In this document: in pieces, positions 14,130-30,103 of the stretch
How the letters are laid out: each line of letters begins with the position of its first letter
Position numbering within the stretch: position 1 is the stretch's first letter
Assembly: GCA_005400705.1 (NCBI GenBank)
Contig: GCA_005400705.1_4079.1
Reading direction: 5' to 3' (one strand)
Source: Escherichia coli
GTDB taxonomy: Bacteria; Pseudomonadota; Gammaproteobacteria; Enterobacterales; Enterobacteriaceae
Length of the DNA: 64,000 nt
Position numbers and translations under genes: made by a program
The notes under the pieces: model-generated
What the model was told of the DNA's origin: nothing
What the model saw: the letters and a program-made list of their open reading frames with translations, nothing else
The model's database searches: none

Positions 14130-16277
14130 ATGCTAAACATTACACGTATATCTATGAGGAACTTCTTTTCATTTGGTAATGCACCACAATCAATTGATTT
14201 GAATGGTTCCGACATTTCATTAGTACTGGGTCAAAATAATGATGCAGTTATTGAAGGTGGTGACAGTACCGGACGTCGAAATGGTGTAGGGAAAAGTGCT
14301 ATTATTCAAGGATTAGTTTTTGGATTATTTGGTAAAAGTATTGGTAATGATATTAAAATTCCGAACCTAGTCAATAAAACTAATGGCAAAAATTGTGAAG
14401 TAGTTGTAGAGTTTGAAAAAGATGGTGTACAATATCTGGTTGAACGTGGGAGAAGTCCCACGTATTTCAATTTTGTTACTTTAGGGAAAGATAATAAAAT
14501 TGAAGATGAATCAAGGGGAGAAAAGAAAGACACACAAGAAGATTTGAATGAAATTCTTGGTATATCTCAATTATTATTTGAACATATTGTAGTACTGAAT
14601 GCTAACGTTGAACCTTTCTTAGCTTTATCCACACAAAAACAACGTGATATGATAGAAGAACTTCTTGGAATAACACAGTTGACGGAAAAAGCTGAAATGC
14701 TAAAGGAGATGTATAAGGATACTAAACGTTTAGCCGAACAAGAAAAGTTCAAAAATGAAACTGTAGCTGCAAGTAATGAACGTATTCAAAAAAGTATTGA
14801 GACACTACAAGAACAGGCAAACCAGTTTGAAATTGATAAAAATAATAGAGTATCTAAGTTAAATGAAGAGTTGAATATATATAAAACTTTAGACTTTAAT
14901 GACCTCTATGAAGCTGCTGATATAAAAGAGAAAGCTCTTATTCATAACGCAAAGCGTGGGGAAATCGAACGCCGTGTACAAGAGTTGGCTTTAAAATTTG
15001 ATGCATATGACCGTGAACTTGAAAGATCTAAAAGAGAATTAAATCTAAGCATTGATAAGCTAAAAACTATTGATATTAGTGCAGAATTGGAAAATCATAA
15101 TGAGTTGGAGATATGGAAACAGTTAGAGGGTATTCTAAAAGAGAATAATAACCAAAAACGTTTCAAAGAACAAAAACTAAACTCACTAAAAATAGCTTTA
15201 AAAGGATATGAATGTTCAATTAATGCTGAAATTGACAAATTATCAACAGTTGAAAACAGCAAATGTCCACTTTGTATGTCTGAATTAGAACATAACGAAC
15301 ATACTTCTTCAATTAAAGACAAAATCCAAAGTACTATTAATGATCTTCAAGCTAAAATTGATAGTTCTTCTTCTGAAATTGAAACATTACTTCAAGAAAT
15401 TGATAGTATTGAGATTTTTGATATGCCACCTAAGCCTGTGACATATTATAATACACTTTCAGAAGCACAAATGCATGAACATAAGCTTCAAGAATTGGTC
15501 AGAAAGAGTGAAGAAGAACAAATAAACATCTATGCAAATGAACTTATGTCATCATATGATGAACTTAACTCATATGAACTAATGGAAGTTCCAGATACAT
15601 TAAACAAATATGAAGTTAAAGAGTTAGAAATGACTGTAAATTCATTATCACAGCAATTAGATCGTGAATTGAAGACTACTAACACATTTATTAGCCAAAT
15701 TAATACCCTGAAGACTGATTCTTTAGTACCAATCGATTATAGCGACTATAATAATCTTGATAAAATGTCAAATCACCAAGATTTCTTGGTTAAATTACTT
15801 TTAAACAAGGATTCTTATGTCCGTAAACGTATTATTGAGCAAAATATCTCATATTTGAATACACGACTTCAGTACTATATCGATATGTGCGGTTCTGAGC
15901 ATAATGTTGTGTTTTTGAATGATTTGAGTGTTGAAATTGAGAAGAGTGGACAGTACTTTGACTATAAACAGCTTAGTAGAGGTGAGCGTACAAGGGTAAA
16001 CATCGCATTATCTTGTGCTTTCCGTGATACATATGAGTCATTATACCAAAGTATTAATATTCTTATCATTGATGAGATGATTGACCAAGGTCTTGACTCA
16101 AGTGGTGTTCTACGTGTGTGGTCTATCTTCCAAGATATGGCTGCTGTACGTGGTAAGAACGTTTATGCTATTTCCCACAGAGAAGAGTTACTATCTAAGA
16201 CTGAAAAAATCCTCAAAGTTGTTAAAGAGGACGGTTTCAGTACTGTTGAATATGCAACCCTTGACGATGTTTTCTAA
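14130..16277 (+). CDS. gp46: recombination endonuclease subunit gp46 (Rad50/SbcC-like ATPase)
   Basis: Walker A RNGVGKSA; long coiled-coil middle with CPLC zinc-hook-like motif; C-terminal signature LSRGERTRVNIALS and Walker B ILIIDE. Confidence 0.8.
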   Translation: MLNITRISMRNFFSFGNAPQSIDLNGSDISLVLGQNNDAVIEGGDSTGRRNGVGKSAIIQGLVFGLFGKSIGNDIKIPNLVNKTNGKNCEVVVEFEKDGVQYLVERGRSPTYFNFVTLGKDNKIEDESRGEKKDTQEDLNEILGISQLLFEHIVVLNANVEPFLALSTQKQRDMIEELLGITQLTEKAEMLKEMYKDTKRLAEQEKFKNETVAASNERIQKSIETLQEQANQFEIDKNNRVSKLNEELNIYKTLDFNDLYEAADIKEKALIHNAKRGEIERRVQELALKFDAYDRELERSKRELNLSIDKLKTIDISAELENHNELEIWKQLEGILKENNNQKRFKEQKLNSLKIALKGYECSINAEIDKLSTVENSKCPLCMSELEHNEHTSSIKDKIQSTINDLQAKIDSSSSEIETLLQEIDSIEIFDMPPKPVTYYNTLSEAQMHEHKLQELVRKSEEEQINIYANELMSSYDELNSYELMEVPDTLNKYEVKELEMTVNSLSQQLDRELKTTNTFISQINTLKTDSLVPIDYSDYNNLDKMSNHQDFLVKLLLNKDSYVRKRIIEQNISYLNTRLQYYIDMCGSEHNVVFLNDLSVEIEKSGQYFDYKQLSRGERTRVNIALSCAFRDTYESLYQSINILIIDEMIDQGLDSSGVLRVWSIFQDMAAVRGKNVYAISHREELLSKTEKILKVVKEDGFSTVEYATLDDVF

Positions 16278-16288
16278 TTAAAGATAAA

Positions 16289-16311
16289 GGGAGCCTTAGC
16301 TCCCTTTTTTT
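16289..16311. terminator. bidirectional rho-independent terminator between gp46 and EndoVII-like gene
   Basis: GGGAGC-ctta-GCTCCC hairpin followed by TTTTTTT; overlaps minus-gene stop. Confidence 0.6.
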
Positions 16312-16787
16312 ATATCAACCATATTTAATTTACCGTCCTTAATCAGCTTTCTAGCTTGCTTTACACGAGCAGTAGTGTTACTACCAGGGACAACTCCTAA
16401 CCCTTCCAGAATCGCGTTTTGCTGTGTTGCTGGAAGCCTTTTAAACTTATTAACATCCACAGTTAGTGCTGTGTGATGTATGACTTGCTCTTCAGGTGGA
16501 ATGTTATTGTTCTTTTCAAGATAATCTGCCAGATTTCTTAGTACTTCATGAAGAGGTTTATCAGTTAAATGGCCCAGACAGCGTTTAAATGAATTTGCGA
16601 CCCTTCCTTCCCATCCATTCACCTCATTTTGAAGAACCTGTCTACAATGTTGATTTCCACCATGATAGTGGTCAAGTACTGGTTTAGTTATTTTTATTCC
16701 TATAATGGGGTCAATACCATTTTGTTTTTTTAGTAGTTCTTTTCTGTAAGCTGCTGCTTCATTGGGATTTTTCAATCTCTTTTTCAT
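16296..16787 (-). CDS. HNH-type nuclease, endonuclease VII-like
   Basis: 163 aa; LDHYHGGNQHCRQVLQNEVNGWEG resembles EndoVII/HNH motif pattern LDHDH...N...EG; antisense to flanking genes. Confidence 0.55.
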   Translation of the reverse strand: MKKRLKNPNEAAAYRKELLKKQNGIDPIIGIKITKPVLDHYHGGNQHCRQVLQNEVNGWEGRVANSFKRCLGHLTDKPLHEVLRNLADYLEKNNNIPPEEQVIHHTALTVDVNKFKRLPATQQNAILEGLGVVPGSNTTARVKQARKLIKDGKLNMVDIKKGS

Positions 16788-16847
16788 AGCGTTTTGTCCT
16801 GTTTCTGTAAATAATGTATATTAAAAAGTTTTGTGAGGTACACAAGA

Positions 16848-17804
16848 ATGGCTAAAATTACACAACAACAATTCATAGATAAATCAATGAATATTCATGG
16901 TAGTATTTACACATACAATAAAACAATATATGTCAATGCACACCATCCAATAACTGTTACGTGTAACATTCACGGTGACTTCACAGTAGTTCCTAATAAA
17001 CACATTTCTGCAAAACAAGGTTGTCCAGTTTGTTCTGATATTGCAAAGAAAGAACGAAAGTCTAAAAAATCTCTGGGGTCATTCTTCACTGAAGCTACCG
17101 AAGTTCATGGTGATAAGTATGATTACTCAAAAGTGTTTTTTAACATTCGTTCAGAAAAGATTACTATTATATGCAAAGAAAAAGGTCATGGTGAATTTAA
17201 TCAAGTAGTTAGTAATCATCTATCTGGACAAGGTTGCCCTGAATGTGCCAAAATTCAAAATGGATTAAAGAAGAGAACTCCAGAAGATGTGTTCTTTGAA
17301 GATTGTAAGTTCATACACATGGATAATTATGATTACTCTAATACAAAATATAATGGCATGTATGAAACCATTACACCATTATGTAAGAGACATGGGGAAT
17401 TCACCGTACTAGCTACTAAGCATTATCATAGAAAACAAGGGTGTCCAGTTTGTTCAGACCAAGAACTAAAATCAAAACCTGTTATTGAAATTCAGAATTT
17501 TTTAAAAACGTGTGATATAATGTTTGAAATGGAAAAGAAATTTGATAGTTGTAAAAACATCAATCATTTACCATTTGATTTTTATATTCCTGAACTTAAT
17601 CTACTAATAGAATATGATGGTATCCAACACTTCAAACCAATAGAATACTTCGGTGGAGAAGAAGGTTTAGCTGAACAACAACGAAATGATGAAATTAAGA
17701 ATAAGTATTGTTATGATAATAATATTACTTTACTTAGAATAAAGTATTCAGATGACCACATTAAAATTATAAAAGACTTCATATCAAAAAATATAAATTA
17801 TTGA
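16848..17804 (+). CDS. homing-endonuclease-like protein: N-terminal Zn-ribbon repeats plus C-terminal Vsr/DUF559-like PD-(D/E)XK nuclease domain
   Basis: Three repeats of HGxF...H...QGCPxC module; C-terminus LPFDFYIPELNLLIEYDGIQH typical of DUF559/Vsr-like fold; track start GTG 16833 trimmed to ATG 16848 with GAGG RBS. Confidence 0.6.
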   Translation: MAKITQQQFIDKSMNIHGSIYTYNKTIYVNAHHPITVTCNIHGDFTVVPNKHISAKQGCPVCSDIAKKERKSKKSLGSFFTEATEVHGDKYDYSKVFFNIRSEKITIICKEKGHGEFNQVVSNHLSGQGCPECAKIQNGLKKRTPEDVFFEDCKFIHMDNYDYSNTKYNGMYETITPLCKRHGEFTVLATKHYHRKQGCPVCSDQELKSKPVIEIQNFLKTCDIMFEMEKKFDSCKNINHLPFDFYIPELNLLIEYDGIQHFKPIEYFGGEEGLAEQQRNDEIKNKYCYDNNITLLRIKYSDDHIKIIKDFISKNINY

Positions 17805-17816
17805 ATAGTTTTTATG

Positions 17817-17851
17817 AACCAAGTAATGTTTTGTTACTTGGTTTTTTTATA
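17817..17851 (+). terminator. rho-independent terminator after homing-endonuclease-like gene
   Basis: AACCAAGTAA-tgttttg-TTACTTGGTT perfect 10-bp stem followed by TTTTTTTAT; second GTACT-a-AGTAC hairpin plus T-run at 17862-17887. Confidence 0.7.
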
Positions 17852-17896
17852 CTTCAAAAATGTACTAAGTACTTTTTTATTTTTTTATGATATTAG

Positions 17897-17925
17897 TGGG
17901 AAGATTTTAAAAATGGTGCTATAAT
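17897..17925 (+). promoter_or_regulatory. promoter, TGGGAA-N17-TATAAT class with TG extended -10
   Basis: TGGGAA 17897-17902, 17-nt spacer, TATAAT 17920-17925 preceded by GTGC; same architecture recurs at 7 other sites. Confidence 0.5.
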
Positions 17926-17931
17926 GTTTGT

Positions 17932-18387
17932 TGTAGTAATGACAATCCTGTTGAATGCAGAAATGCATATAAATTAGAACCTGATCCTATCGAAAATGTA
18001 GATGGCAGATGAGCAGTTCAACAGTGCGATGAGCAAAAGAAACCCGTTAGATGTGGGCATAGTTTGAACCCCTCACGGCAATGCGGCTCAATAAAGAACT
18101 CCGATAAGCATACAGAGAGTTCCTAGATAGACATATAAGGATCGCACCTTACCAGATTTGCTAAGGGAGTTTATTAAGTGATTTTAATAAACAGCCTGAA
18201 GTTTGATTGTATAGACTTTCAGGTGAGTGTCAGGATGATTAAGACTGACGACCGTTGCACATGACTGCGATAGAGAGAAACAGAGCAACCCGCTTTCGTT
18301 CTTAATATATTTTTAAGAAATTCGCAATACAATAAATGCTGAAACCATCAGCGTCAAGAAATAGAGACTTCATTGTCTCTTTTTTAT
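17932..18387 (+). ncRNA. candidate structured non-coding RNA (unknown family)
   Basis: About 455 nt between promoter and terminator with no ORF over 21 codons and no RBS; multiple hairpins incl. ATGCA-GAAA-TGCAT (GNRA loop), 9-bp GTTTATTAA/TTAATAAAC, CCTGAAG/CTTTCAGG, GTCAG/CTGAC; long-range complement GTGCGAT (18024-18030)/ATCGCAC (18141-18147). Confidence 0.3.
18363..18387 (+). terminator. rho-independent terminator closing the candidate ncRNA
   Basis: AGAGAC-ttcatt-GTCTCT hairpin followed by TTTTTT. Confidence 0.6.
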
Positions 18388-18603
18388 TGTCTTCATTCCC
18401 CTGCGGGGGGATGAAAATGTCCTCAACAAATCCCGTCAAGTATTAAATCTTTTAAAGTTCTTTATAATTAATTTAATTAAATGAATATGAGTTACGTAGT
18501 AACGAATATTCTTCAGCTAACGAATGAAATGAGTTAGATGAATCTAATAATATTAAAATTAATCCTTTCATAATTCAATTCAAATAATTCTGTAGTTTAA
18601 AAC

Positions 18604-18629
18604 CAAAAAAACCAGCAACAATGTGCTGG
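18604..18629 (-). terminator. rho-independent terminator after minus-strand late genes
   Basis: CCAGCA-acaatg-TGCTGG hairpin; plus-strand A-run = minus-strand T-run downstream of stop at 18641. Confidence 0.6.
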
Positions 18630-18640
18630 CTATATGAAAA

Positions 18641-18850
18641 TTAGTGCTTCTCGTTTTGTTTTTTAATTTTTTTATTAAAAGACTTAACTAATAAGTCTCT
18701 ATCTATTAATGGCATATTAAGGAGTGTTCCATAGTCAATGTTATCCATATATACAGAACATTCCATTAGTGCATTTTTGATTTCTGACTTATTCAGTTCT
18801 ATCTCCTTCAGTACTTCTTGTATTTCTTCAGGAGATGACTGGAGAAGCAT
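18641..18850 (-). CDS. hypothetical small late protein
   Basis: 69-aa ORF overlapping upstream gene stop by 1 nt (translational coupling). Confidence 0.45.
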   Translation of the reverse strand: MLLQSSPEEIQEVLKEIELNKSEIKNALMECSVYMDNIDYGTLLNMPLIDRDLLVKSFNKKIKKQNEKH

Positions 18851-19686
18851 TACTCGAAAAAATGACTAGGATCATATTTTAGTCCATCAATTTCCCATTG
18901 ATGATTACATCCATCACATTCTACTTCCATACTATGAGATACACCAATTTCAAGTACTTCATCCATTTTTTCACGAATTAGTTTAAGTACTCCCTTCGAT
19001 TGTTGTCCAAGCCATTCATTAATAAATTCTTTTTCAACTACTTCATCACCATCTGGTGTTATAATTTTTGCAATAACTCCACCAATCATATCGAAGTTAA
19101 GTTGAGCCATGTTTTCAAATACTTCAGAAAATATTTTTACTTTTTCATCTTTATCAATATCAGCAGTTTCAAGAAACTTAGTCTTCTGCTGCTCACTGAA
19201 CATGCGTTCAGCAAACGATGAATATTCTTTCCATGTCAGTGGTCTAAATTCTAAACGTAGTCCATTATCTAAATCAATTGATGGGATTTCTTCAAATGCT
19301 TGTGCAGTTTCAAGAAGATATGATAGATTACGTTCAAATCGACCTTCTTTTTCACATTCAGGACATACAACGTTAATATCATATGTTTCTTCTTTAGAAG
19401 CAACTTTAATAGCAATAAGAAGCATTTCAACGTCATTTACATACAACTCATCAGCGTCAATTACATTAGGAACACAGTTTTCAATAACACGGGATACTGC
19501 ATCTCCGTTTAGTAACATATCGGGGGTATTAAGTGTCATTTCATCACGTGCACTACGTGCACAAACTCCACATTTGACACCTTTTGGACCTAGAACTCCT
19601 TCTTTATAAGGAATAACGCCGTTTGTAACTAACTTAGTACTGATCTCTTCAATTTTAGTGTACTTAGCAAGTGGATTCATAGCCAT
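18850..19686 (-). CDS. hypothetical Cys-rich (putative zinc-binding) late protein
   Basis: 278 aa with CGVC, CPEC, CDGC motifs; GGAGA RBS; late-promoter element upstream. Confidence 0.55.
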   Translation of the reverse strand: MAMNPLAKYTKIEEISTKLVTNGVIPYKEGVLGPKGVKCGVCARSARDEMTLNTPDMLLNGDAVSRVIENCVPNVIDADELYVNDVEMLLIAIKVASKEETYDINVVCPECEKEGRFERNLSYLLETAQAFEEIPSIDLDNGLRLEFRPLTWKEYSSFAERMFSEQQKTKFLETADIDKDEKVKIFSEVFENMAQLNFDMIGGVIAKIITPDGDEVVEKEFINEWLGQQSKGVLKLIREKMDEVLEIGVSHSMEVECDGCNHQWEIDGLKYDPSHFFE

Positions 19687-19720
19687 TTTATTAAATCTCC
19701 ATGTAATAAATGTGTTTTAG

Positions 19721-19728
19721 TATTTATA
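19721..19728 (-). promoter_or_regulatory. T4-type late promoter TATAAATA for minus-strand gene starting at 19686
   Basis: plus tatttata in divergent intergenic region. Confidence 0.5.
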
Positions 19729-19816
19729 AGACTAAAAAAGATTAAATTAAACTAATTTTTATATTCTCTATAGTTTCATAAATATTTCTATAATACATCT
19801 ATTAAAAGGGAATGTT

Positions 19817-22021
19817 ATGGCTGGAAATACAAGTGATTACCTACTCCAGCAGTTGGTTAATCAAACTAAAGATAACAACGATAGTTTGAGTGCTATTCGT
19901 GAGTTATTGGCTGAAAATATAAAAAATGATAGAAAGAAATCCGGTTCTAAAAGTGGAAAACGTAATGGAAGTAATTCATCAAGTACTGGAAACCGTGGCT
20001 CTCGAACAAATAACAAAGCTGATGATGGTAAAGAATTTGGAAAAATATTCAAATCATTATCATCTGAAGTATCGAATGTCGGCAAAACTATGATGAGTAC
20101 GTCTGCAAACGTTAGCAATGTTGTAAACTCACTAGGAATGAGTGCATCTTCATTTGCTGGTTCATTAGCAATGATCCCAGGTCCAGTTGGTGCAGCAGCA
20201 TCTGCATTCAAATTGGTTGCTGACGCTGGTTTAGCAGTTTATAATGTGTTAAATGCACAGCTTGAAGTTTATAATAGAATAAACAGTGCTGGTGTCGCTC
20301 TATCTGAAGGTTACGGCTCCATATTAAAAGGTGCTGGTGCATCAATGATGAGTATTGATGCATTTGGTGAAGCATTACAAACTCATAGTGCCGTTGTTGC
20401 ACAATTAGATGGTGCATATGGTGATGGTGTTTCTACATTTGGTAAATTATTGGGTACTGTGCAACAAGCACAAAATCAATTAGGTTTATATGGTGTTTCT
20501 CAAAAAACATTAACTGATTTAACTGCACGTAATATTAAATTCCAAAAGCAATTTGGTGGAAGAGAAATGTTACGTAGTATGGATCAAGCAAAAAGTACTG
20601 AACAGTTTATCATGAGTATGACTAAGTTTAGTAAAAGTATGGGTGAGTCAGTTGATGCACTATTAAATAAAACACAAAACTTAGATAAATCATTAGACAC
20701 ACGTTCAATGCAAATCGCATTACAAAACTATTCTGGATTATCTAGTAAAGCAGCAGTTGCAACATCAAAAGCATTTAACGAAGCTGCTGCCAGTATGGGT
20801 GATGCTGGTGCAGATTTTCTACGTTTAATTTCACATCGTTTAACTATTGGTGGAGTACCAGATGATTTATTGACTCCAGTACTGAACCAATTTGCTGATT
20901 TAGGTGAGAACTTGGTACGTAGTGGTGTTACTGATTCACAAGAAATTCGCCGTCAACAATTGGAATTTGTTAAAAAGAACAAAGAACTAATAAAGCAAGA
21001 TTTATTAAATCAGATACAATTAGGAAACACTACGGCAGCAACCTTCAACCAACAACTACTTGATATGGAAGCTGCGATTAATGATCCTAAGAGTCAACCA
21101 GCAGATAAACTAACACAATTCACTGATAGATTCAATAGATGGATTAGTAAAGAATTTACTGAACCATTTAATAAAATGTATGCAGATACACAAAATTCTA
21201 TTGCGGATTACCTTACTGATATTGCAGACCGTACTGATGGTGCATGGGAATTCATCGGAGAGTTAGCACTTGATGGTTTTGGTTTGGTTCCTATTGCGAA
21301 AGATGCAGTTGCGTATTTGGATAGGATTGGTGGTGAGTTTGAGCAGTGGTTAGAAGGGTTAGGTACTGAAATTTTTGGTAGTGGATATAATAAAGTTTCA
21401 GAAGCATTTGATAGCTTTATGAATAACCTAATGGATCTTCCTGGTAAACTTTGGGATTCTGTTAAAGGTTGGTTTGGTGGTTCAGACGACAAAGTAAAAG
21501 TAGAAAACAATTCTGTTACCGATGGTGCAGAAAAAGTTAATAATTATTTTGAAGAAAAAATGAATTCATTTGGTGATTATATTTCTAGTTCATTTGATGG
21601 TTTTTTAAAATGGAATTCAAGTAGAAACTTTAAACAACCAAAACCCCTTGATGAATCAGTTGCTGAAAAACTTATTAGTAGTGGTCTTGAAAATAAGCCA
21701 AGAGCAACTGCGAGAATCGAAAAATCTGAACATGTTGCACCATATGTTACCATAACTCCAAAAACTTTTGATAAATCAGCATGGGGTCCAAATGAACCAC
21801 CAATTCAAGCTGAACCGGACGATTATGAGGCCATGAAAGCGATGATAAATAGTGGTAGTAGTATGGCAAATGCTAATAATAATGCCACAATATCAGAAGA
21901 CATGAAAGAGTTACTTAAAAAACTTGCTGATGTTAATGAGCAATCTCTATCTGCTGTGCAACAGACAAATAACTATCTAAGAACTATCTCTGAAAACACT
22001 CAAGGTGAGAGAAACAGTTAA
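19817..22021 (+). CDS. large hypothetical protein with N-terminal basic Gly/Ser/Asn-rich low-complexity segment; possible virion protein
   Basis: 734-aa ORF immediately upstream of portal gene; TATAAT at about 19789-19794; no catalytic motif recognised. Confidence 0.55.
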   Translation: MAGNTSDYLLQQLVNQTKDNNDSLSAIRELLAENIKNDRKKSGSKSGKRNGSNSSSTGNRGSRTNNKADDGKEFGKIFKSLSSEVSNVGKTMMSTSANVSNVVNSLGMSASSFAGSLAMIPGPVGAAASAFKLVADAGLAVYNVLNAQLEVYNRINSAGVALSEGYGSILKGAGASMMSIDAFGEALQTHSAVVAQLDGAYGDGVSTFGKLLGTVQQAQNQLGLYGVSQKTLTDLTARNIKFQKQFGGREMLRSMDQAKSTEQFIMSMTKFSKSMGESVDALLNKTQNLDKSLDTRSMQIALQNYSGLSSKAAVATSKAFNEAAASMGDAGADFLRLISHRLTIGGVPDDLLTPVLNQFADLGENLVRSGVTDSQEIRRQQLEFVKKNKELIKQDLLNQIQLGNTTAATFNQQLLDMEAAINDPKSQPADKLTQFTDRFNRWISKEFTEPFNKMYADTQNSIADYLTDIADRTDGAWEFIGELALDGFGLVPIAKDAVAYLDRIGGEFEQWLEGLGTEIFGSGYNKVSEAFDSFMNNLMDLPGKLWDSVKGWFGGSDDKVKVENNSVTDGAEKVNNYFEEKMNSFGDYISSSFDGFLKWNSSRNFKQPKPLDESVAEKLISSGLENKPRATARIEKSEHVAPYVTITPKTFDKSAWGPNEPPIQAEPDDYEAMKAMINSGSSMANANNNATISEDMKELLKKLADVNEQSLSAVQQTNNYLRTISENTQGERNS

Positions 22022-22032
22022 GGACGAAAATA

Positions 22033-23772
22033 ATGAGTTGGAAACGACATATGACAGTGGGAAGGTCTAAACTATCGACCATCCCAAATCAGTCCAGTAA
22101 TAGCAATAAATCAACAGGAACGAAAACAAATTTCGCTTCCTATCTTCCTGTTGTATATAATGGATTGGCAAACCGTACTGAGCGTTATAGTCAGTATGAG
22201 CAAATGGACCAAGATCCTGAAATTAGAACTGCATTGAATATAATTGCTGACTTTTGTACCCAAAGTACTGAAGATTTTGGTTTACCATATAAAATCAAAT
22301 ATAAAGATGATATTGGTGATACTGAAGTAACGACTATTGAAGATCGTTTAGATGCATGGACTGAACAAAATGATTTTAAAACACGAATGTATGAAATTGT
22401 GCGTGGTCTTCTGAAATATGGTGATCAATTTTTCATTCGAGATCCAGAAACATTCGATTGGTATTGGGTAAGTCCCAAAAATGTTGAGCAAGTATTTGTT
22501 AACGAAGCCACTGGTAAAACACCAGTAATTTATTATATACGTGACGTATCATTAAATTTGAAAGATAAAGTTTTTAGTAACCTTCAAGTAGGATTTGATA
22601 AAACCGCTTATCCAGGAGCTATTCCGACAACAATGGGTGGTGGTGGTTCAGTAGCTGCGGGTGGTGCATCTGGTTTTACAAGTCAAGGAAATACTGCTGA
22701 TCCATTCAGTACTAACGGTCAATTAGACGTTATTCCTGTTGGTGCAGAACACGTAATTCATCTAACGCTAAATACAGGACAAGATGGGGTATGGCCTTTT
22801 GGTACTAGTATACTTGAGGACGTATTTAAAGTCTATAAGCAAAAAGAACTTCTGGAAGATAGTATCATAATTTATCGTGTACAACGTGCACCTGAGCGTC
22901 GTGTATTTAAAATTGATGTTGGTGATATGCAAGCACACCAAGCAATGGCTTATGTTGAAAGATTTAAAAATGAAATCCACCAGCGTAGAATACCTTCAAA
23001 CAAAGGTGGAAGTACTTCATTAATGGATGCAGCATATAATCCATTAAGCATTTTAGAAGACTACTTTTTCCCACAAACTTCTGAAGGTCGTGGTTCAGAT
23101 GTTCAAACATTACCAGGCGGTGATAACTTAGGACAAATTGATGACTTACGTTATTTCAATAATAAATTGATTCGTGGTCTTCAAATACCAGCTTCTTATC
23201 TACCACAAGGTCCAGATGATGGTGGTGTTTCATTATTTGGTGATGGTGCTACACAAGCTATGGCAAGTGAATTGCGATTCAATAATCAATGTATGCGTTA
23301 TCAACGTTTAGTTGCAAAACATTTTGATGCTGAATTCAAAAGATTTATGGTTAAAAATGGATATAACATTAGTACTTCATCTTTTGAAGTTATTATGAAT
23401 CCACCTATTAACTTAGCTTCTTATCGTAAAGCTGAACTAGATGCTAAACTAATTAATACATATCTTCCTCTTAATGACTTGCCTTATATGGCGAAACAAA
23501 CAATTCTTGAAAAAATGGGCTTTTCTAAAGCTGATATTGTTAAGAATGAACAAATGTGGTTACAAGAGAATCCACAAGATGGTTCCCAACCTTCTGGTGG
23601 TGAAGAAGATTCCGCAGGATTACAGTCTGTTGGTATTGATGCTCCAAATGATCCTGGAATGGATCTTGGTATTGATGGAGAAGGTAATTTGGAAAGTGCT
23701 GATGCCGAATACCAAGAGCAACAGAGTGGAAGTGGTGGTTTCAACCCTAATAATTTAGGCAATTCTTTTTAA
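22033..23772 (+). CDS. gp20: portal protein (gp20-like)
   Basis: 579 aa; IIYRVQRAPERRVFKIDVGDM resembles recalled T4 gp20 core motif; upstream of protease/scaffold/MCP. Confidence 0.85.
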   Translation: MSWKRHMTVGRSKLSTIPNQSSNSNKSTGTKTNFASYLPVVYNGLANRTERYSQYEQMDQDPEIRTALNIIADFCTQSTEDFGLPYKIKYKDDIGDTEVTTIEDRLDAWTEQNDFKTRMYEIVRGLLKYGDQFFIRDPETFDWYWVSPKNVEQVFVNEATGKTPVIYYIRDVSLNLKDKVFSNLQVGFDKTAYPGAIPTTMGGGGSVAAGGASGFTSQGNTADPFSTNGQLDVIPVGAEHVIHLTLNTGQDGVWPFGTSILEDVFKVYKQKELLEDSIIIYRVQRAPERRVFKIDVGDMQAHQAMAYVERFKNEIHQRRIPSNKGGSTSLMDAAYNPLSILEDYFFPQTSEGRGSDVQTLPGGDNLGQIDDLRYFNNKLIRGLQIPASYLPQGPDDGGVSLFGDGATQAMASELRFNNQCMRYQRLVAKHFDAEFKRFMVKNGYNISTSSFEVIMNPPINLASYRKAELDAKLINTYLPLNDLPYMAKQTILEKMGFSKADIVKNEQMWLQENPQDGSQPSGGEEDSAGLQSVGIDAPNDPGMDLGIDGEGNLESADAEYQEQQSGSGGFNPNNLGNSF

Positions 23773-23845
23773 ACATAAATAACAGTGTATAAGAATGAGG
23801 GTTTATTTTTACCCTCATTTATAATGCATATTTCAAGGAGATCAA

Positions 23846-24073
23846 ATGTTAAAGGACATCTTTGAATCTAGCAGTGATTCAATGTACGACCCTGAAGATG
23901 ATCAGAACGTATATAAAATTACTGATTCCAGAAAACCGAAACTAACATTACAAGTATTAAACAACTTAAGAAAGTACCGTGAATTTAAAGCACATGAAGA
24001 ACAACGCCGCAAAAATGTGGTTGCAGTTGTTTATGCCGCTGCACCAACAGGTGACGGTTCTGGGTTAATGTAA
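23846..24073 (+). CDS. hypothetical small protein
   Basis: 75-aa ORF with AAGGAG RBS between portal and acidic protein genes. Confidence 0.4.
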   Translation: MLKDIFESSSDSMYDPEDDQNVYKITDSRKPKLTLQVLNNLRKYREFKAHEEQRRKNVVAVVYAAAPTGDGSGLM

Positions 24074-24174
24074 ATCAAAAATCGCACTTTTTAAAGCTTT
24101 TAAAAAAGGCGATTTTATTCAGTACTAAATAATATCATACTTTATACGAATGTAATATATCTATGGAGGATATA

Positions 24175-25011
24175 ATGGCGAATTTAAAACTACTACAAGA
24201 AGCAATTGCGGCGTTTGCAAATGGCGAACAAGATATTGCTGATAAAAAAATGCGTAAGTATTTCGTTGAGCAAGCTCAAGAAATTAACAAACAACTAGAA
24301 GAAAGCATGGAAGATGAAGATTGTGAAGTCGAAGTTAAAGTCAAAGATGAAGAAAAGCTTGACGAAGATTTTGATGTACAACCAGACGAAGGTCTAAATG
24401 CTGAAATCGAATACACCCTTGGTGAAGAAGATGAAAGTGCAGAAGAAGAAGTTGAATTCTCTGCTGATGAAGATGGTGACGGTGAAGACGATGTTGACGT
24501 TGAAGTGAAAGCTGATGCTGATGTTCCTTCCGAAGACCAATGGGAATCAATCCAAGATGCTTTCCGTGGCCTACAACAAATGTTTGATGAAATCGGTGAC
24601 GGTGAAGTTGATCTAGATTCTGAAGAAGAAGTAGAAGATAGCGAAGAAGAAGTTGGCGTTGACGGTGACGACGAATTTGCTGATGTTGAATTCGGTGATG
24701 AAAAATTCGGTGAATCCTTCAAACTAGAAAAAGTTGCTCCAGTTGATAAGAAAGAAAAAGCTGGCACTCATTCCAAATCTCCAGTAGCACCAGAAGCTAA
24801 ATCTCCAGTAGCAGGAGCAGAGCCAGTTAAATTCGCTAAGAAAACTGACCAAGCACCACTACTAGACCTAGATGATAAATCTGTTCTACCAAAAGATAGT
24901 CTAGATCTTGGTAAAAATGCTCGCGGTGAAATGAAAGATGTTAAAGCACCAAAAACTACTGCATCTAATTCTAAATCACCACTAAGCAAAGCACAACCTA
25001 AACTAAAATAA
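24175..25011 (+). CDS. highly acidic protein, possible prohead core/internal protein
   Basis: Asp/Glu-rich repeats; start set at ATG 24175 after GGAGGA; position between portal and prohead protease. Confidence 0.5.
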   Translation: MANLKLLQEAIAAFANGEQDIADKKMRKYFVEQAQEINKQLEESMEDEDCEVEVKVKDEEKLDEDFDVQPDEGLNAEIEYTLGEEDESAEEEVEFSADEDGDGEDDVDVEVKADADVPSEDQWESIQDAFRGLQQMFDEIGDGEVDLDSEEEVEDSEEEVGVDGDDEFADVEFGDEKFGESFKLEKVAPVDKKEKAGTHSKSPVAPEAKSPVAGAEPVKFAKKTDQAPLLDLDDKSVLPKDSLDLGKNARGEMKDVKAPKTTASNSKSPLSKAQPKLK

Positions 25012-25031
25012 ATATCTGAAAGGAGATCATT

Positions 25032-25655
25032 ATGAGTAGTATGATTCGTGAATGGTCTTCATTCAATGATTCTAAAGTTGTTTTGGAACATCGTGATAAT
25101 GGATTTGGTGGGCGTGACTGCTATCTTCGTGGTATTGCTATTCAAGCCGACCAACGAAATTTGAACGAGAGAATTTACCCTTTATCTGAAATTACAAGGG
25201 CAGTAAATAACATGAACCAGCGTTTAGCTAAAGGTGAAAGCATTCTTGTTGAATGTGACCATCCAGAAACACTAACTATTAACCTAGACCGAGTAGCAGC
25301 AATGATTACTAAGGTTTGGATGGAAGGTGCTAATGGTATGGCAGAAATCAAACTACTTGATACTGCACATGGTCAAAATATCCGTAAAATGCTAGAGGCT
25401 GGTGTAAAACTTGGTGTAAGTTCTCGCGGTTCCGGTAACGTTGATTATAATGGAATAGTTTCTGATTTTGAAATTATCACTATTGATATTGTTGCTCAAC
25501 CTAGTGCTCCAGAAGCATACCCAACAGCGGTATTTGAATCTCTGATGAGTAAGTACGGATCACCTTGTAATAGTTCTAAAAAAATCACTGAATCTAAAAA
25601 AGTAAATAATTTAGATTCTGAAATATACGATTTTTTCAAGAAATTAAAAGGTTAA
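25032..25655 (+). CDS. gp21: prohead core protease (gp21-like)
   Basis: 207 aa; NERIYP and GVSSRGSGN resemble recalled T4 gp21 motifs; AGGAG RBS. Confidence 0.8.
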   Translation: MSSMIREWSSFNDSKVVLEHRDNGFGGRDCYLRGIAIQADQRNLNERIYPLSEITRAVNNMNQRLAKGESILVECDHPETLTINLDRVAAMITKVWMEGANGMAEIKLLDTAHGQNIRKMLEAGVKLGVSSRGSGNVDYNGIVSDFEIITIDIVAQPSAPEAYPTAVFESLMSKYGSPCNSSKKITESKKVNNLDSEIYDFFKKLKG

Positions 25656-25721
25656 CATTTTAAAAATATAAATATCTGTATGTTGAAGTACAGATATTTC
25701 AGTACTTAAAGGAGAGAACGA

Positions 25722-26837
25722 ATGTCTAAATTAGAAAAGCTTCTAAAAGAATCATCTCTTTCTGATGAGGCAAAACAGCTAATTCAGGAAGCATGGAATG
25801 AAGAAAAGAATACACTAGCCGCAGAGATGCGTGAAGAAATGAAAGGCCGTTATCAGCAAGATTTGGCTGAACTAACCGAAGGTTTGAACACTATGGTTAC
25901 TCAAGTCATTGCTGAAGAAATGGGTGCTGTATATGAAGAGAAAAAACGTCTCGTTGAAGATCGTGTAACTCTACGTAAAACACTAAGCAATTTCTCTGCG
26001 TTTTCAAACTCTGTTTTGGCTGAAGAAGTTAAACAAATGCGTAAAGAACGTAAGCATCTTCATGAATGCATGGGTAAATTCGTTAATTTTTCTAACGGTA
26101 TCCTAGCAGAAGAGCTAAAAGAATTCCACACTGAAAAACGTCAACTAGTTGAAACTCGCGTTAAACTACTTGCTGAAGGTTCACGTCAAATTGCTGAAGC
26201 TCGTAATAACTTCATCAAACGTACATCTGAAAGTGCTGCTAAATATATTGCAGAAACCACTCAGAAGAATCTATATGCGTTGAAACAAGATCTAGTGGAA
26301 GCAAAACAAAATATGTTTGGTCGTAAAATCTTTGAAGCATTTGCTCAAGAGTTTAATGTCAAACAATTTAATGAAAACTCATTGCTACGTTCCCTAACTG
26401 AATCAATTAAATCTAAAGAAGATGAAATTGCTCAAGTTAAGCAAGAACTACATGAAACTGCTAATGCGGTTAAAGCTGCTAAAACCAAACTACGTATTAT
26501 GGAAGATGCACAAGCACGTAATGCGATTATGTCTGAACTAGTAAAACCACTAACTGCACAGCAAAAACAAATTATGGAATCTCTTCTAGCTACTTCACCT
26601 ACTGAAAAGCTTAAAGAAGATTTCAGCAAGTACCATAAGTCAGTACTTAACGGTACTAAAGTAAATGAATCTGCTACCACTCGTCAAGCAGTTCAGTCTT
26701 CCGCTAAGAAAACTCTTGCAGAAGGTAAAGTAATCACTGGCAACCGTCAGGCTATTGTTGAAAGCGAAGAAATGACCGCTGACGATATGGCATTCCTAAA
26801 AGAACTCGATGTTCTTTCAGGTATCAATAAAAAATAA
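25722..26837 (+). CDS. gp22: prohead scaffolding protein (gp22-like), coiled-coil rich
   Basis: 371 aa, heptad-rich E/K/L/A composition; TATAAATA at 25667-25674; position protease-scaffold-MCP. Confidence 0.65.
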   Translation: MSKLEKLLKESSLSDEAKQLIQEAWNEEKNTLAAEMREEMKGRYQQDLAELTEGLNTMVTQVIAEEMGAVYEEKKRLVEDRVTLRKTLSNFSAFSNSVLAEEVKQMRKERKHLHECMGKFVNFSNGILAEELKEFHTEKRQLVETRVKLLAEGSRQIAEARNNFIKRTSESAAKYIAETTQKNLYALKQDLVEAKQNMFGRKIFEAFAQEFNVKQFNENSLLRSLTESIKSKEDEIAQVKQELHETANAVKAAKTKLRIMEDAQARNAIMSELVKPLTAQQKQIMESLLATSPTEKLKEDFSKYHKSVLNGTKVNESATTRQAVQSSAKKTLAEGKVITGNRQAIVESEEMTADDMAFLKELDVLSGINKK

Positions 26838-26928
26838 ACATTTTAAAGCATTTTAATAATCAAATTTTTCAGTTCTATAAATAATATCATACTGAAAAAC
26901 GAATATAACATCTTTAAGGAGATATATA

Positions 26929-28104
26929 ATGTCACAACTACTAAATGAATCCAAATGGGTAGCAGTAAAAGAGAAACTAGTTGAAGGTCTACAGGGTACT
27001 CGTAAGTCTGTAATGGAAACTGTTCTTGATAACCATCGTAAAGTTATGCTAACTGAATCCGCAACTTCTGGTGCAACTACCGCTGGTAACATCGCTACTC
27101 TAAACAAAGTGATTCTACCAATTATGCGTCGTGTAATGCCAACCGTTATTGCTAACGAAATCATCGGTGTTCAACCTATGACTGGTCCAGTTGGTCAGAT
27201 CCACACCCTACGTGTACAATATGCTGATAACGCACCTGGTGTAATCGCTGGTGAAGAAATGCTTTCTCCATACAAAATCGCTAAATCTTACTCTGGTGAT
27301 CTAAATGCGGATAATAGCAACCCACAAGCTGCTCCTACTAGCCAACTAGAAGGTACTATGGGTCGTCGCGTTAACATCCGTATTCTACGTGAAACTGTTG
27401 AAGCGAAATCTCGTCGTCTATCTGCACGTTGGACTGTTGAATCTGCACAAGATGCTCAATCCCAACATGGTGTTGACGTTGAAGCAGAACTAATGGCTGC
27501 AATCGCTCAAGAAGTTACTGTAGAAATCGACCAAGAGCTACTAAGCCGTCTACGTGCACTACCTGGTGCTGCTGCTGTAACTTATGACCAATCTAAAGTT
27601 ACTGGTGTTGCAACCTTCGTTGGTGATGAGCACGCTGCTCTAGCTACTCTAATTAACCGTCAAGCAAACGAAGTTGCTCGTCGTACTAAGCGTGGTGCTG
27701 CAAACTGGGCTGTTGTTTCCCCAACTGCACTAACCATTCTACAATCTGCTACTACTTCTAGCTTTGCACGTACCACTGAAGGTACTTTTGAAGCACCAAC
27801 TAACGTTAAGTTTGTAGGTACTCTAAACAGCACTATGCGTATTTTCGTTGATACCTATGCTAGTGATGCAGAAGATATTCTAATTGGTTATAAAGGTAAT
27901 GCGGAAACTGATGCTGGTGTATTCTATTGCCCATACATCCCACTAATGGCTTCTGGTACTGTAATGGACCCTAACACTGGTGAACTCGTGACCACATTTT
28001 TAACACGCTATGGCTACGTTCAGCTAACCGACAGTACTTCATCTCTTGGTAACGCTGCTGACTACTACAGCAAAATCGCTATCAAAAACGTTACTTTCAT
28101 GTAA
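26929..28104 (+). CDS. gp23: major capsid protein (gp23/gp24 family)
   Basis: 391 aa; IANEIIGVQPMTGPVGQIHTLR, RETVEAKSRRLSA, DAGVFYCPYIPL resemble conserved gp23 segments as recalled; TATAAATA at 26876-26883, AAGGAG RBS. Confidence 0.85.
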   Translation: MSQLLNESKWVAVKEKLVEGLQGTRKSVMETVLDNHRKVMLTESATSGATTAGNIATLNKVILPIMRRVMPTVIANEIIGVQPMTGPVGQIHTLRVQYADNAPGVIAGEEMLSPYKIAKSYSGDLNADNSNPQAAPTSQLEGTMGRRVNIRILRETVEAKSRRLSARWTVESAQDAQSQHGVDVEAELMAAIAQEVTVEIDQELLSRLRALPGAAAVTYDQSKVTGVATFVGDEHAALATLINRQANEVARRTKRGAANWAVVSPTALTILQSATTSSFARTTEGTFEAPTNVKFVGTLNSTMRIFVDTYASDAEDILIGYKGNAETDAGVFYCPYIPLMASGTVMDPNTGELVTTFLTRYGYVQLTDSTSSLGNAADYYSKIAIKNVTFM

Positions 28105-28148
28105 TTATAAACGATTTAAAAGATTTAATCAAGAATATAAAAACAATA

Positions 28149-28176
28149 GGGACTCTTCGGAGTCCCTTTTCTTTTG
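28149..28176 (+). terminator. rho-independent terminator after major capsid gene
   Basis: GGGACTC-ttcg-GAGTCCC followed by TTTTCTTTTG. Confidence 0.7.
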
Positions 28177-28190
28177 TGTTAAAAAAATGC

Positions 28191-28219
28191 TTGACAGAAT
28201 ATTTTTAATTATATATAAT
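28191..28219 (+). promoter_or_regulatory. consensus sigma70-type promoter (TTGACA-N17-TATAAT)
   Basis: TTGACA 28191-28196, 17-nt spacer, TATAAT 28214-28219; lies inside the track ORF 28046-29341, so the real start must be downstream. Confidence 0.65.
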
Positions 28220-28252
28220 TATCAAATCGAAACCAAGTTGAGTAAATTGAAA

Positions 28253-29341
28253 ATGTTAATTGAAAATTTCAAAAAGAAAATGAATGAAAAATATGGAATG
28301 TATGGTGAGTTTGATTTTAATTCGATGATTTTTAAATCTAGCAAAACTACCTTGAAATGTAACAAATGTGGTATTGAAAATACAAAGTCTGCAATTCGTC
28401 ATATCTCATGTACTTGCTCTAACTGTTATAGTAACATGTCCCAGCGTTCCAATAATGATGATTTCATTTTAAAAGTTGAAAAGAAATTCGGGACTGAAAA
28501 ATTTAAATTTGATAAATTGGTTTATGTTAATGCAAAAACTCCAGTTACAATATTCTGCACTAAACATAATGGTTATTTTCACATAACACCAAATAAGTTA
28601 TTAACTGGTGCTGGATGTAACGTTTGTAATATTAATGTAGTGCATACGAATAATGAATTTATAAAAATTGTTAAACGTAATTATGGTGATAAATTTAGTT
28701 TCCAAAAAACCAACTATATTAACAGAACAACAAAAGTCACAGTGCATTGCAATGAAGGAAATCATGATTGGGAAGTTGATCCAAAAACATTGATACTTGG
28801 GAAGTCAGGATGTGGTATATGTTCAGGTAAAGGTGGGAGAACAACCGAGCAATTTATTGCAGAAGCTGTAAAAGTTCATAACAATAATTATGATTACTCA
28901 TCTGTTATGTATGAGCATAGTGAAAAAATGGTCGAGATAAAATGCAACAATTGTAAAAATATTTTTCATCAGCAACCTAAAGCACATTTGACAGGTCGTG
29001 GTTGTCCAAAATGCGGTAAGTATGGTTATCAGACTTCCAAGCCTGGATATTTTTATGTACAGAAACTAACTAATAAAGATAAAACCGTTTACAAATATGG
29101 AATCACTGGTGATATGAAACGTAGAGTGAACGAACAGAGTCGTGATTCTGAATTCGTCCATGAAGTACTAGTAGAACGTTTCTTCGAAGATGGTAATAAA
29201 CCCCTCTTACTGGAAAAGTTTATCAAGCAGTACATTGAAAGTGGAGTAGTAAGTACTGAAGAGTTGCCGTCAGGATTTACTGAAACGTTTGATGAAAAGT
29301 ATCTAAAATCTGTACTGGAAATTGTAAATACCTTTAAGTAA
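28253..29341 (+). CDS. homing-endonuclease-like protein: Zn-ribbon repeats plus C-terminal GIY-YIG/T5orf172-like domain
   Basis: Repeats of Cx2C...H...GCxxC module similar to 16848-17804 gene; C-terminal GYFYVQK...VYKYGITGDMKRRVNEQ; start chosen at first ATG after promoter (28253; 28280 also possible). Confidence 0.6.
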   Translation: MLIENFKKKMNEKYGMYGEFDFNSMIFKSSKTTLKCNKCGIENTKSAIRHISCTCSNCYSNMSQRSNNDDFILKVEKKFGTEKFKFDKLVYVNAKTPVTIFCTKHNGYFHITPNKLLTGAGCNVCNINVVHTNNEFIKIVKRNYGDKFSFQKTNYINRTTKVTVHCNEGNHDWEVDPKTLILGKSGCGICSGKGGRTTEQFIAEAVKVHNNNYDYSSVMYEHSEKMVEIKCNNCKNIFHQQPKAHLTGRGCPKCGKYGYQTSKPGYFYVQKLTNKDKTVYKYGITGDMKRRVNEQSRDSEFVHEVLVERFFEDGNKPLLLEKFIKQYIESGVVSTEELPSGFTETFDEKYLKSVLEIVNTFK

Positions 29342-29364
29342 ACAATCTAAAGGAGTTGACACGG

Positions 29365-29715
29365 ATGTTAACTGTATACAAATTTAAAAGAGAAGAGTAC
29401 TTAAAGAGCCAGTACTCAAATATAGAAATAAATGTTCCTTATGGTACGTTAGTTGGATACGATGAAGCCACTGAAACATTGTATTATAATGATGATAGAT
29501 TAGATTATAGTTTAGATTCTTTCATAGAAGATATACTTAATACACATACTGAAGATATGTTGTATGAAGAATACATCGATCATTATAGAGAACGTATGTC
29601 GCTGCTGCATTCTGATGCTCCTGTGCTAAACATTGCACAAGAACCCTCGGAATTTCAGCCACATAATCCTTTTCAACGTTTAATTGATATTGGTTTAAAA
29701 TTCACTATTAATTGA
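29365..29715 (+). CDS. hypothetical protein
   Basis: ATG 29365 with AGGAG 9 nt upstream (track start TTG 29356). Confidence 0.45.
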   Translation: MLTVYKFKREEYLKSQYSNIEINVPYGTLVGYDEATETLYYNDDRLDYSLDSFIEDILNTHTEDMLYEEYIDHYRERMSLLHSDAPVLNIAQEPSEFQPHNPFQRLIDIGLKFTIN

Positions 29716-29754
29716 TAGATAAATATCTCCATATTAATGATGGAGATTGAATCT

Positions 29755-30063
29755 ATGTCACAGATATGTTATGTTATAATAAACTCTGCATGGCCTGACT
29801 ATGTTAAGATTGGTTTCACTTCTAAATCTGAAATGACAGAGCGTTTGAGAACGTATCAGACAGCTACCCCGTTTCGTGATTTTGAAGTTTATCATGAAGT
29901 TCACTTTGAAGACGCACGTTTAGCTGAAAAAGAGATACATAAAAGGCTTAAACAAATGAATGCAACTAGACAACCAAACACGGAGTGGTTTAAAATGTCT
30001 AAAAAGATAGCAGCAAACATCATTGATTCTGTGTGGGATGATATGGATAACGACTTGCTATAG
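29755..30063 (+). CDS. small GIY-YIG/T5orf172-like domain protein
   Basis: N-terminal CYVIINSAWPDYVKIGFTS...RL pattern; start trimmed to ATG 29755 with GGAG RBS; ATCTCCAT/ATGGAGAT hairpin spans 29729-29751. Confidence 0.5.
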   Translation: MSQICYVIINSAWPDYVKIGFTSKSEMTERLRTYQTATPFRDFEVYHEVHFEDARLAEKEIHKRLKQMNATRQPNTEWFKMSKKIAANIIDSVWDDMDNDLL

Positions 30064-30103
30064 GAATAAATATAGTATATATTAATCATAAAGGGATTTA
30101 TAC

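Follow-up and report, generated by a model that had tools for sequence, protein, structure and literature searches.

In T4-like phages, the Seg and Mob endonucleases (of the GIY-YIG and HNH types) are encoded by intergenic cassettes that sit near conserved essential genes and are patchily distributed among relatives; these enzymes cut the cassette-less allele some distance from the insertion point and co-convert the flanking markers, and the Seg proteins combine an N-terminal nuclease with NUMOD or helix-turn-helix DNA-binding regions. Here we consider two genes, open reading frames (ORFs) A and B, in a 64,000-nucleotide stretch of DNA filed under Escherichia coli (GenBank assembly GCA_005400705.1, contig GCA_005400705.1_4079.1; hereafter, the window, at its full length). 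Unlike in Seg, the nuclease domain of both proteins is C-terminal, and the putative binding region is an array of zinc modules; the nuclease is Vsr/EDxHD-like in A and belongs to the T5orf172-type GIY-YIG group in B. We argue that A and B are probably free-standing homing-endonuclease cassettes and that they are new, uncharacterised members of two published architectures, not a new kind of system.

Judging from nucleotide similarity, the window comes from a jumbo phage of E. coli of the Asteriusvirus (121Q/PBECO4-like) group: megablast with positions 16000-30500 retrieved 63 phage records, headed by the Escherichia phages ECO103 4-12-1 and EC22.5-2 (98.8% identity), with 121Q, PBECO4 and other members of the genus Asteriusvirus as the next-best relatives. 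The phages of this genus are 'Rak2-like' jumbo phages of ~350 kilobases (kb). The gene order in the region is Rad50-like ATPase, endonuclease VII, baseplate hub, portal, protease, scaffold, major capsid protein, tail fibre; A neighbours the endonuclease VII gene and B, as originally predicted, the major capsid gene.

The closest described counterparts of B are T5orf172 homing-endonuclease genes with repeated CapR/DUF723/DUF4379 fingers, such as gp165 and gp174 of phage ICP1 and those of Vibrio phage Helene, which are built like beads on a string, recombine their modules and occur preferentially near capsid, terminase and nrd genes (Barth, Nguyen and Seed 2023; PMC10448857). Fingers of the CapR type bind DNA (PMC10448857). 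B resembles these genes in its N-terminal tandem zinc fingers and C-terminal T5orf172 domain, in its capsid-gene neighbourhood, in its variable presence between isolates, in the recombination of modules between alleles, and in the location of nuclease genes at the boundaries of genetic exchange. It differs from them in its lineage (Asteriusvirus), in T5orf172 and CapR scores that fall below the Pfam cut-offs, and in the multi-allelic character of its site, which holds three- and four-module alleles as well as unrelated occupants.

For A, the counterpart is the 'large unrecognized outgroup' of EDxHD homing endonucleases, in which 3-5 CapR-like domains of ~60 amino acids (aa) precede an EDxHD/Vsr-like domain (Merk et al. 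2025; PMC12350094). ORF A has exactly this architecture and, likewise, is found in large phages; its homologues, too, number in the thousands and mostly lack annotation (of 8,000 candidates scored, >7,600 proteins had E<=1e-5). Whereas the examples of Merk et al. are carried by group I or group II introns, A lies between genes as a free-standing ORF that has its own terminator. An intron context was considered and rejected, since a comparison of the window with Rfam gave no family, introns included, that reached the gathering threshold, and around A there was none even at E<=1. The prototype EDxHD homing endonuclease, I-Bth0305I (Taylor et al. 2011, PMC3239194; PDB 3R3P), shares with A the phage origin and the combination of an N-terminal DNA-binding region with a C-terminal Vsr-like nuclease, and is the best structural match of A's nuclease domain; however, it is intron-encoded and contains two NUMOD2/helix-turn-helix motifs, and its sequence similarity to A is marginal (profile E 0.45). 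Since A has a zinc-module N-terminus in place of NUMOD2/helix-turn-helix motifs and an intergenic rather than an intron or intein location, it fits the published outgroup and not the core family.

One type of zinc-module array, two nuclease domains

The claim of the original prediction that A and B share a repeat array is borne out: pairwise alignment and searches with hidden Markov models (HMMs) revealed significant repeat similarity, along with support for the nuclease families. In BLASTP, A and B align over 132 aa with 35% identity (E=1.2e-20). An HMM built from the A modules only detects B with a full E of 2.3e-24 and three of its modules with E-values of 2e-7, 4.5e-8 and 7.6e-12, while module B1 is not found singly (E 9.6) and is recognised by B's own profile alone; the reciprocal HMM, built from the B modules only, detects A with a full E of 4.2e-31 and its three modules with E-values of 4e-15, 1e-13 and 4e-4. 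A search for further module copies among the 497 stop-to-stop segments of the window returned none scoring below E of about 0.05 besides A and B. Because the cross-profiles find A and B and no other frame in the window, the sharing of modules is confirmed far beyond chance. The predicted number (three to four) and size of the copies also hold, with three in A and four in B, each of ~60 aa (boundaries set manually; Table 1), the correction being that the first copy in B is degenerate.

All seven modules align in register, with pairwise identities of 17-43%, and follow the pattern F-I-x-K-A-x-x-x-H-G-x-K-Y-D-Y-S ... V-x-I-x-C-x2-4-H/C-G-x-F ... H-L-x-G-x-G-C-P-x-C. Four Cys/His positions, which we propose to be zinc ligands, are invariant in every module in alignments of 36 A and 41 B homologues, including the ligand sets of A listed in Table 1 and the equivalent Cys residues of the B family. 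The Pfam gathering cut-offs are passed on A by DUF723 (29.6 bits; cut-off 20.9) and DUF4379 (25.7 bits; 24.5) and on B by DUF4379 (30.4 bits; 24.5), the CapR model staying below its cut-off on B (17.3 vs 24.2 bits). The AlphaFold models combine high local confidence (predicted local distance difference test, pLDDT, 93 for A and 86.6 for B) with low predicted template-modelling scores (pTM, 0.49 and 0.43, respectively), as expected of beads-on-a-string proteins. In the DSSP assignment of the model, each module consists of a 12-residue helix, a short strand pair, a beta-hairpin with the first two ligands, and a C-P-x-C motif at the start of a helix. The modules had been described as Zn-ribbons; their nature as zinc-ligand modules stands, while a plain ribbon does not, the modelled secondary structure being that of a helix followed by a treble-clef-type finger (zinc knuckle, with CPxC at the helix N-terminus). 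This fold is suggested by the DSSP assignment rather than by model coordinates, and the Pfam description of DUF4379 reads 'probable treble clef zinc finger'. By likeness to CapR (PMC10448857), the array would bind DNA in a sequence-specific manner.

How old is this sharing? The original prediction spoke of the shuffling of a common array onto different nucleases, and the two nuclease domains are, indeed, unrelated. A recent exchange of DNA-binding modules between A and B in one genome would agree with the ~10 kb distance between the two genes and with the alignment of their modules in register; however, the A and B modules are only 17-36% identical, those of A resembling one another more (34-43%), the two cassettes share no similarity at the DNA level, and A belongs to the above large family whereas B falls into a separate small clade, largely confined to jumbo-phage contigs. 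Given the low module identity and the lack of DNA similarity, a recent exchange is rejected as very improbable; the common array is old, and the exchange between A and B is ancient. Recent exchange of modules is visible only among the alleles at the B locus.

ORF A, preceded by a GAGG Shine-Dalgarno motif 9 nucleotides (nt) upstream of its ATG, has a 100% identical database counterpart of equal length (P0001, 318 aa) and matches the endonuclease family phrog_559 in PHROG (E 2e-66). This family carries the misleading public name 'HNH endonuclease', although its domain is Vsr-like. The motif FDFYIPELNLLIEYDGIQH, from which a Vsr/DUF559-like C-terminus had been predicted, is present, and its key residues are invariant in the family: D244, E255, G258, Q260, H261 and D281 do not vary, nor does K284 in a set of 30 C-terminal sequences, its conservation across the full-length alignment being at least 90%. 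By motif comparison, the conserved acidic and His residues D244, E255, H261 and D281 would line up with D51, H69 and D97 of Vsr. Members of the A family match DUF559 at 2.7e-8 and DUF2726 at 1.3e-5, and a profile of the C-terminal 113 residues of A gives weak matches to AbaSI, I-Bth0305I and a DUF559 structure, all of them Vsr-like nucleases. In a Foldseek search of the PDB with the A model, the catalytic domain of I-Bth0305I (3r3p_B, probability 0.99, target template-modelling score 0.61) and E. coli Vsr (1vsr/1cw0, probability 0.99) come out on top; the residue-by-residue alignment of A to I-Bth0305I is poor. The predicted assignment is thus upheld by the family hits, the Foldseek matches and the invariant residues.

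ORF B has a 99% identical counterpart of equal length (P0121, 362 aa) and matches phrog_681, likewise an endonuclease family (E 3e-73). The predicted motif GYFYVQK...YKYGITGD..RR is there, with its key residues invariant in the family. The invariant positions of the domain are Y268, K281, G283, I284, R291, G314, E321, G341 and E344, so that B displays the conserved Tyr...Tyr/Lys-x-Gly...Arg...Glu series of the GIY-YIG fold; in addition, a T-E-T-F motif of the T5orf172 type is invariant. The GIY-YIG/T5orf172-like assignment holds by virtue of these residues (Y268, K281-x-G283, R291, E321) and of the hits of C-terminal homologues, 13 of 22 of which match MUG113 and 9 of 22 T5orf172, with a best E of about 5e-6; B itself scores 14.1 bits with MUG113. 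The alignment by hhalign of the B C-terminal profile with a neighbouring T5orf172 protein is consistent with the motifs, albeit weak (probability 3.5%, E 0.012). The profile of the B C-terminus found nothing in the PDB, and neither A nor B, compared as a single sequence with those of the PDB, gave more than chance hits. In public records, the B allele of phage CRJP21 is misnamed 'DNA polymerase II', and most other alleles are called 'hypothetical protein'.

Table 1. Positions of the features discussed in the text, numbered along the window
Feature	Position	Strand	Remarks
Endonuclease VII gene	16296-16787	-	left neighbour of cassette A
Left flank of cassette A	16450-16788	.	first ~113 codons of endonuclease VII gene; candidate co-conversion tract
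Cassette A	16789-17865	+	1077-bp insertion vs 121Q and PBECO4; holds ORF A and its own terminator
ORF A	16848-17804	+	318 aa; three zinc modules and C-terminal Vsr/EDxHD-like nuclease
Module A1	16860-17039	+	aa 5-64; proposed zinc ligands C39, H42, C59, C62
Module A2	17070-17255	+	aa 75-136; proposed zinc ligands C109, H114, C130, C133
Module A3	17277-17462	+	aa 144-205; proposed zinc ligands C179, H182, C199, C202
Nuclease domain of A	17463-17804	+	aa 206-318; Vsr/EDxHD-like PD-(D/E)XK
Intrinsic-terminator-like hairpin	17816-17844	+	3' end of cassette A; 13-bp stem and T run
Right flank of cassette A	17866-17965	.	15 differences in 100 bp, essentially none beyond
ORF-free conserved element	~17943-18481	+	~430-540 nt; 75% identical to Munch
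Capsid gene, 3' part	27844-28041	+	codons ~306-371; two dense synonymous clusters (~306-318, ~350-371) over invariant peptide
Major capsid gene terminator	28148-28167	+	kept in all relatives; left boundary of insertion site
Cassette B	28183-29364	+	1182-bp insertion vs PBECO4 (40 unrelated bp) and SD-15_S21 (1 bp)
Sigma-70 consensus TTGACA-N17-TATAAT	28191-28219	+	inside cassette B, 34 nt upstream of ATG
ORF B	28253-29341	+	362 aa; four zinc modules and C-terminal T5orf172-type GIY-YIG nuclease
Module B1	28253-28432	+	aa 1-60; degenerate, CxxC...CxxC ligands
Module B2	28448-28630	+	aa 66-126
Module B3	28643-28828	+	aa 131-192
Module B4	28838-29017	+	aa 196-255; adjoins nuclease; module exchanged between alleles
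T5orf172/GIY-YIG domain of B	29018-29341	+	aa 256-362

Insertion sites, flanking tracts and alleles

Comparison with relatives that are devoid of these genes showed precise presence and absence, with insertion points exact to the base pair (bp) for both cassettes; elsewhere, the cassette-less phages are 96-99% identical to the window. At the site of cassette A, 121Q and PBECO4 have 58 unrelated bp instead, as defined by blastn break-points and the junction sequences, and among 50,697 phage records the cassette occurs, at 100% identity, in just two, those of ECO103 4-12-1 and EC22.5-2. To its left, identity to 121Q and PBECO4 drops to ~72-75% over 339 bp and returns to ~99-100% further left; the 42 synonymous and 22 non-synonymous codon differences in this part of the endonuclease VII gene all fall within codons 3-106. 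The divergent tract accompanies cassette A only, its next-best match in the phage collection being 86% identical, and it looks like a co-conversion tract. Homologues of A with 47-60% identity occupy the same junction between the endonuclease VII and baseplate-hub genes in Salmonella phage Munch and in two metagenomic jumbo phages. In one metagenomic jumbo phage (L007), an extra gene for a T5orf172 and DUF4379 protein (2418-3449, minus strand) lies between those for the Rad50-like ATPase and endonuclease VII; it adjoins the A homologue and forms with it a small island of homing-endonuclease genes.

Cassette B fills exactly the interval from the terminator of the capsid gene to the ATG of the next gene, for which its 3' end supplies the ribosome-binding site. 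The TTGACA-N17-TATAAT sequence within it had been singled out as a perfect promoter; it is, indeed, there and is the only 12/12 match in positions 16200-30200, but the consensus by itself is not statistically remarkable, with four matches with at most one mismatch in the window against 1.6 expected, and 7 of 100 shuffles doing as well. A second perfect TTGACA-N17-TATAAT occurs at 60272-60300 (plus strand). Near-consensus promoters are found at the same place in the 121Q, ECO103 and E9.1 alleles, so that a promoter function is argued for by position and conservation and not by the consensus match itself.

Among 22 relatives, the site after the capsid gene was found in five states. It can hold a four-module allele (the window, 121Q, BF17 and others, with ~70-74% DNA identity to the window allele), a three-module allele (ECO103, slurp01, E9.1, Munch and others), a different T5orf172 gene of 332 aa that scores 26 bits, above the Pfam cut-off (SHEFM2K, L105 11243-12241), or genes of 532-552 aa with DUF7487 and a REase_MTES_1575-like domain (UE-S1, L106 11192-12850; ph0011, L107 10932-12530), these three loci all being equivalent to window position ~28183, and it is empty in PBECO4 and SD-15. 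On this comparison of sequences, the site is a hot spot for nuclease genes. In IMG/VR, a scan for relatives of B gave >50% identity at only two loci, one in 121Q itself and the other in a metagenomic jumbo phage. Among the Asteriusvirus alleles compared, the nuclease domain of B is 89-97% identical, while the module arrays are mosaics: the ECO103 and E9.1 alleles are alike in modules 2-3 (96% and 91%) and divergent in module 4 (44%), and those of 121Q and ECO103 are alike in module 4 (83%) and divergent in modules 2-3 (42-45%). Since these arrays are mosaic at module resolution, recent shuffling of modules among the B alleles is evident.

Next to this site, the 3' part of the capsid gene carries patches of synonymous change: the capsid gene differs from that of PBECO4 in 29 codons and from that of 121Q in 20, every one of them synonymously, and the 30-residue peptide encoded by codons 342-371, identical in all phages compared (19 of 22), is encoded by at least 10 nucleotide haplotypes. 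Such patches are expected from co-conversion with diverged donors or from selection for cleavage-resistant variants of a target; they may thus comprise a target or immunity site and the co-conversion region of the B family. A perfect split between occupied and empty sites at codons 311-317 was considered and rejected, being broken by SHEFM2K and Ecwhy_1. In a comparison of 17 occupied alleles and two empty sites taken from GenBank records, the subtype of module B4 tracks the 5' capsid sub-patch (codons 351-355) in 12 of 12 alleles, including those of CRJP21 and Turkey3, in which module and sub-patch are separated by sequence of the other type. One could envisage a natural multi-allelic system in which swaps of modules retarget the nuclease and synonymous 'immunity' changes in capsid codons ~350-371 match them; we regard this as doubtful, since the tracking, a mere lead, would be explained equally well by a single replacement of an internal segment.

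Probable homing and the alternatives

Our inferences that the array binds DNA, that the enzymes cleave at the positions named below and that the cassettes home rest on the domain architecture, the intact catalytic motifs, the precise presence and absence among relatives, the divergent flanks, and the repeated occupation of the same site by other nuclease genes, all of which support the predicted role of A and B as free-standing homing endonucleases. In this scenario, the zinc-module array ('beads on a string', DUF723/DUF4379, CapR-like) would read a long DNA site, and the nuclease fused to its C-terminus would cut. The promoter of cassette B, placed directly after the capsid terminator, would allow transcription by the host RNA polymerase independently of the late capsid operon. 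Upon mixed infection with a related phage that lacks the cassette, the enzyme would cut the allele of that phage close to the insertion site, with the cut of A falling within or beside the 5' end of the endonuclease VII gene and that of B within the 3' end of the capsid gene, and recombinational repair would then copy the cassette, together with some flanking donor sequence, into the recipient.

Several observations weigh against this scenario. Some of them concern the nuclease assignments: A itself scores below the cut-offs of DUF559 and DUF2726, and its Foldseek E-values are only ~0.03, which can be ascribed to the several domains of the query; B itself stays below the Pfam T5orf172 cut-off (15.4 vs 20 bits, E 0.027), and Foldseek with its model was uninformative. 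Others concern the sites. SHEFM2K possesses a nuclease gene at the B site, yet the 3' end of its capsid gene is identical to that of the empty PBECO4, so that variant capsid sequence and occupancy of the site are not perfectly linked. Furthermore, the divergence of the flanks could stem from ordinary recombination between phages, and the occupation of both sites in distant genera could be due to old vertical inheritance with losses and not to repeated invasion.

Could the two proteins be domesticated, serving the phage as a CapR-like transcriptional regulator of the capsid operon, as a nuclease that excludes competing phages, or as one that acts against satellites in the manner of Odn of ICP1, rather than being selfish? 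The position of B next to the capsid operon is suggestive in this respect, as a CapR finger protein represses a capsid operon (PMC10448857); homologues at both sites in distant genera are compatible with long retention, and a nuclease domain that is 89-97% conserved while the arrays diversify is what selection in a conflict would be expected to produce. However, the invariance of the catalytic residues makes a purely regulatory role unlikely, the cassettes are missing from viable phages that are otherwise 99% identical, one and the same site can be taken by nucleases of different families, and divergent tracts lie beside the insertions; besides, marker exclusion and homing are compatible with each other. 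We consider domestication unlikely and assign a somewhat lower likelihood still to the possibility that the cassettes are passive, moron-like or decaying relics that move by general recombination in co-infection, with no site-specific nuclease activity. The latter would be in line with the own promoter and/or terminator of each cassette, the general mosaicism of the region, the degenerate first module of B, and the 'hypothetical protein' labels that annotators mostly give to these genes. It is at odds with the intact reading frames and the conservation of all metal-ligand and catalytic positions across dozens of homologues, with the confident AlphaFold models (pLDDT 93 and 87), with the concentration of divergence right beside the cassettes instead of its being spread, and with the repeated use of the same two intergenic sites by nuclease genes only. 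Hence, free-standing homing endonucleases appear to be the probable nature of A and B.

Neighbouring elements and implications

Some further features of the region deserve mention. To the right of cassette A, 775 bp (17866-18640) contain no ORF of 50 aa or more and include a conserved element that is present once in the window and at 291 places in 71 records of Rak2-like jumbo phages, with 4-5 copies per genome in most. In an alignment of 13 sequences, 79 pairs are predicted, with 96.7% of the cells paired versus 40-44% when the partners are slid, and 27 pairs show compensatory double changes versus 2-9 in the slid controls. Within the element lie an intrinsic terminator (window 18363-18380), in which compensatory changes occur, and a CCCC/GGGG hairpin that does not vary, and Rfam gave no match to the element; ncRNA002 and ncRNA004 of phage PA5oct were rejected as homologues, showing no similarity. 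It looks like an undescribed multi-copy structured RNA candidate of Rak2-like jumbo phages. In Salmonella phage SD-15_S21, the endonuclease VII gene (L003 1297-1794, equivalent to window 16296-16787) appears to be disrupted: ~146 bp (equivalent to window 16495-16640) are gone, the remainder is a hybrid of the window and 121Q types, and the annotation shows short ORFs only. Two genes downstream of B, a stand-alone T5orf172/MUG113 protein of 108 aa (window 29737-30063, plus strand; E 4e-13) is encoded, which is devoid of a DNA-binding array and is found at the same position in every relative examined there, including Munch and the cassette-less PBECO4; this protein may be a relic or may act as a partner nuclease.

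Taken together, A and B are a natural and well-resolved case in which a putative DNA-binding repeat array is combined, in a single genome, with two unrelated nuclease chemistries, and they correct the public annotation of family members ('HNH endonuclease', 'DNA polymerase II', 'hypothetical protein'). The exact boundaries of the cassettes, the relatives with empty sites and the mosaic series of alleles make a convenient system for studying the specificity of CapR/DUF723 fingers, the positions of cuts, and mosaicism near essential genes. If the matching between module B4 and the capsid sub-patch turned out to be true, natural variation might reveal a module-to-DNA recognition code for the CapR/DUF723 fingers, similar to the codes of zinc fingers and TALEs.

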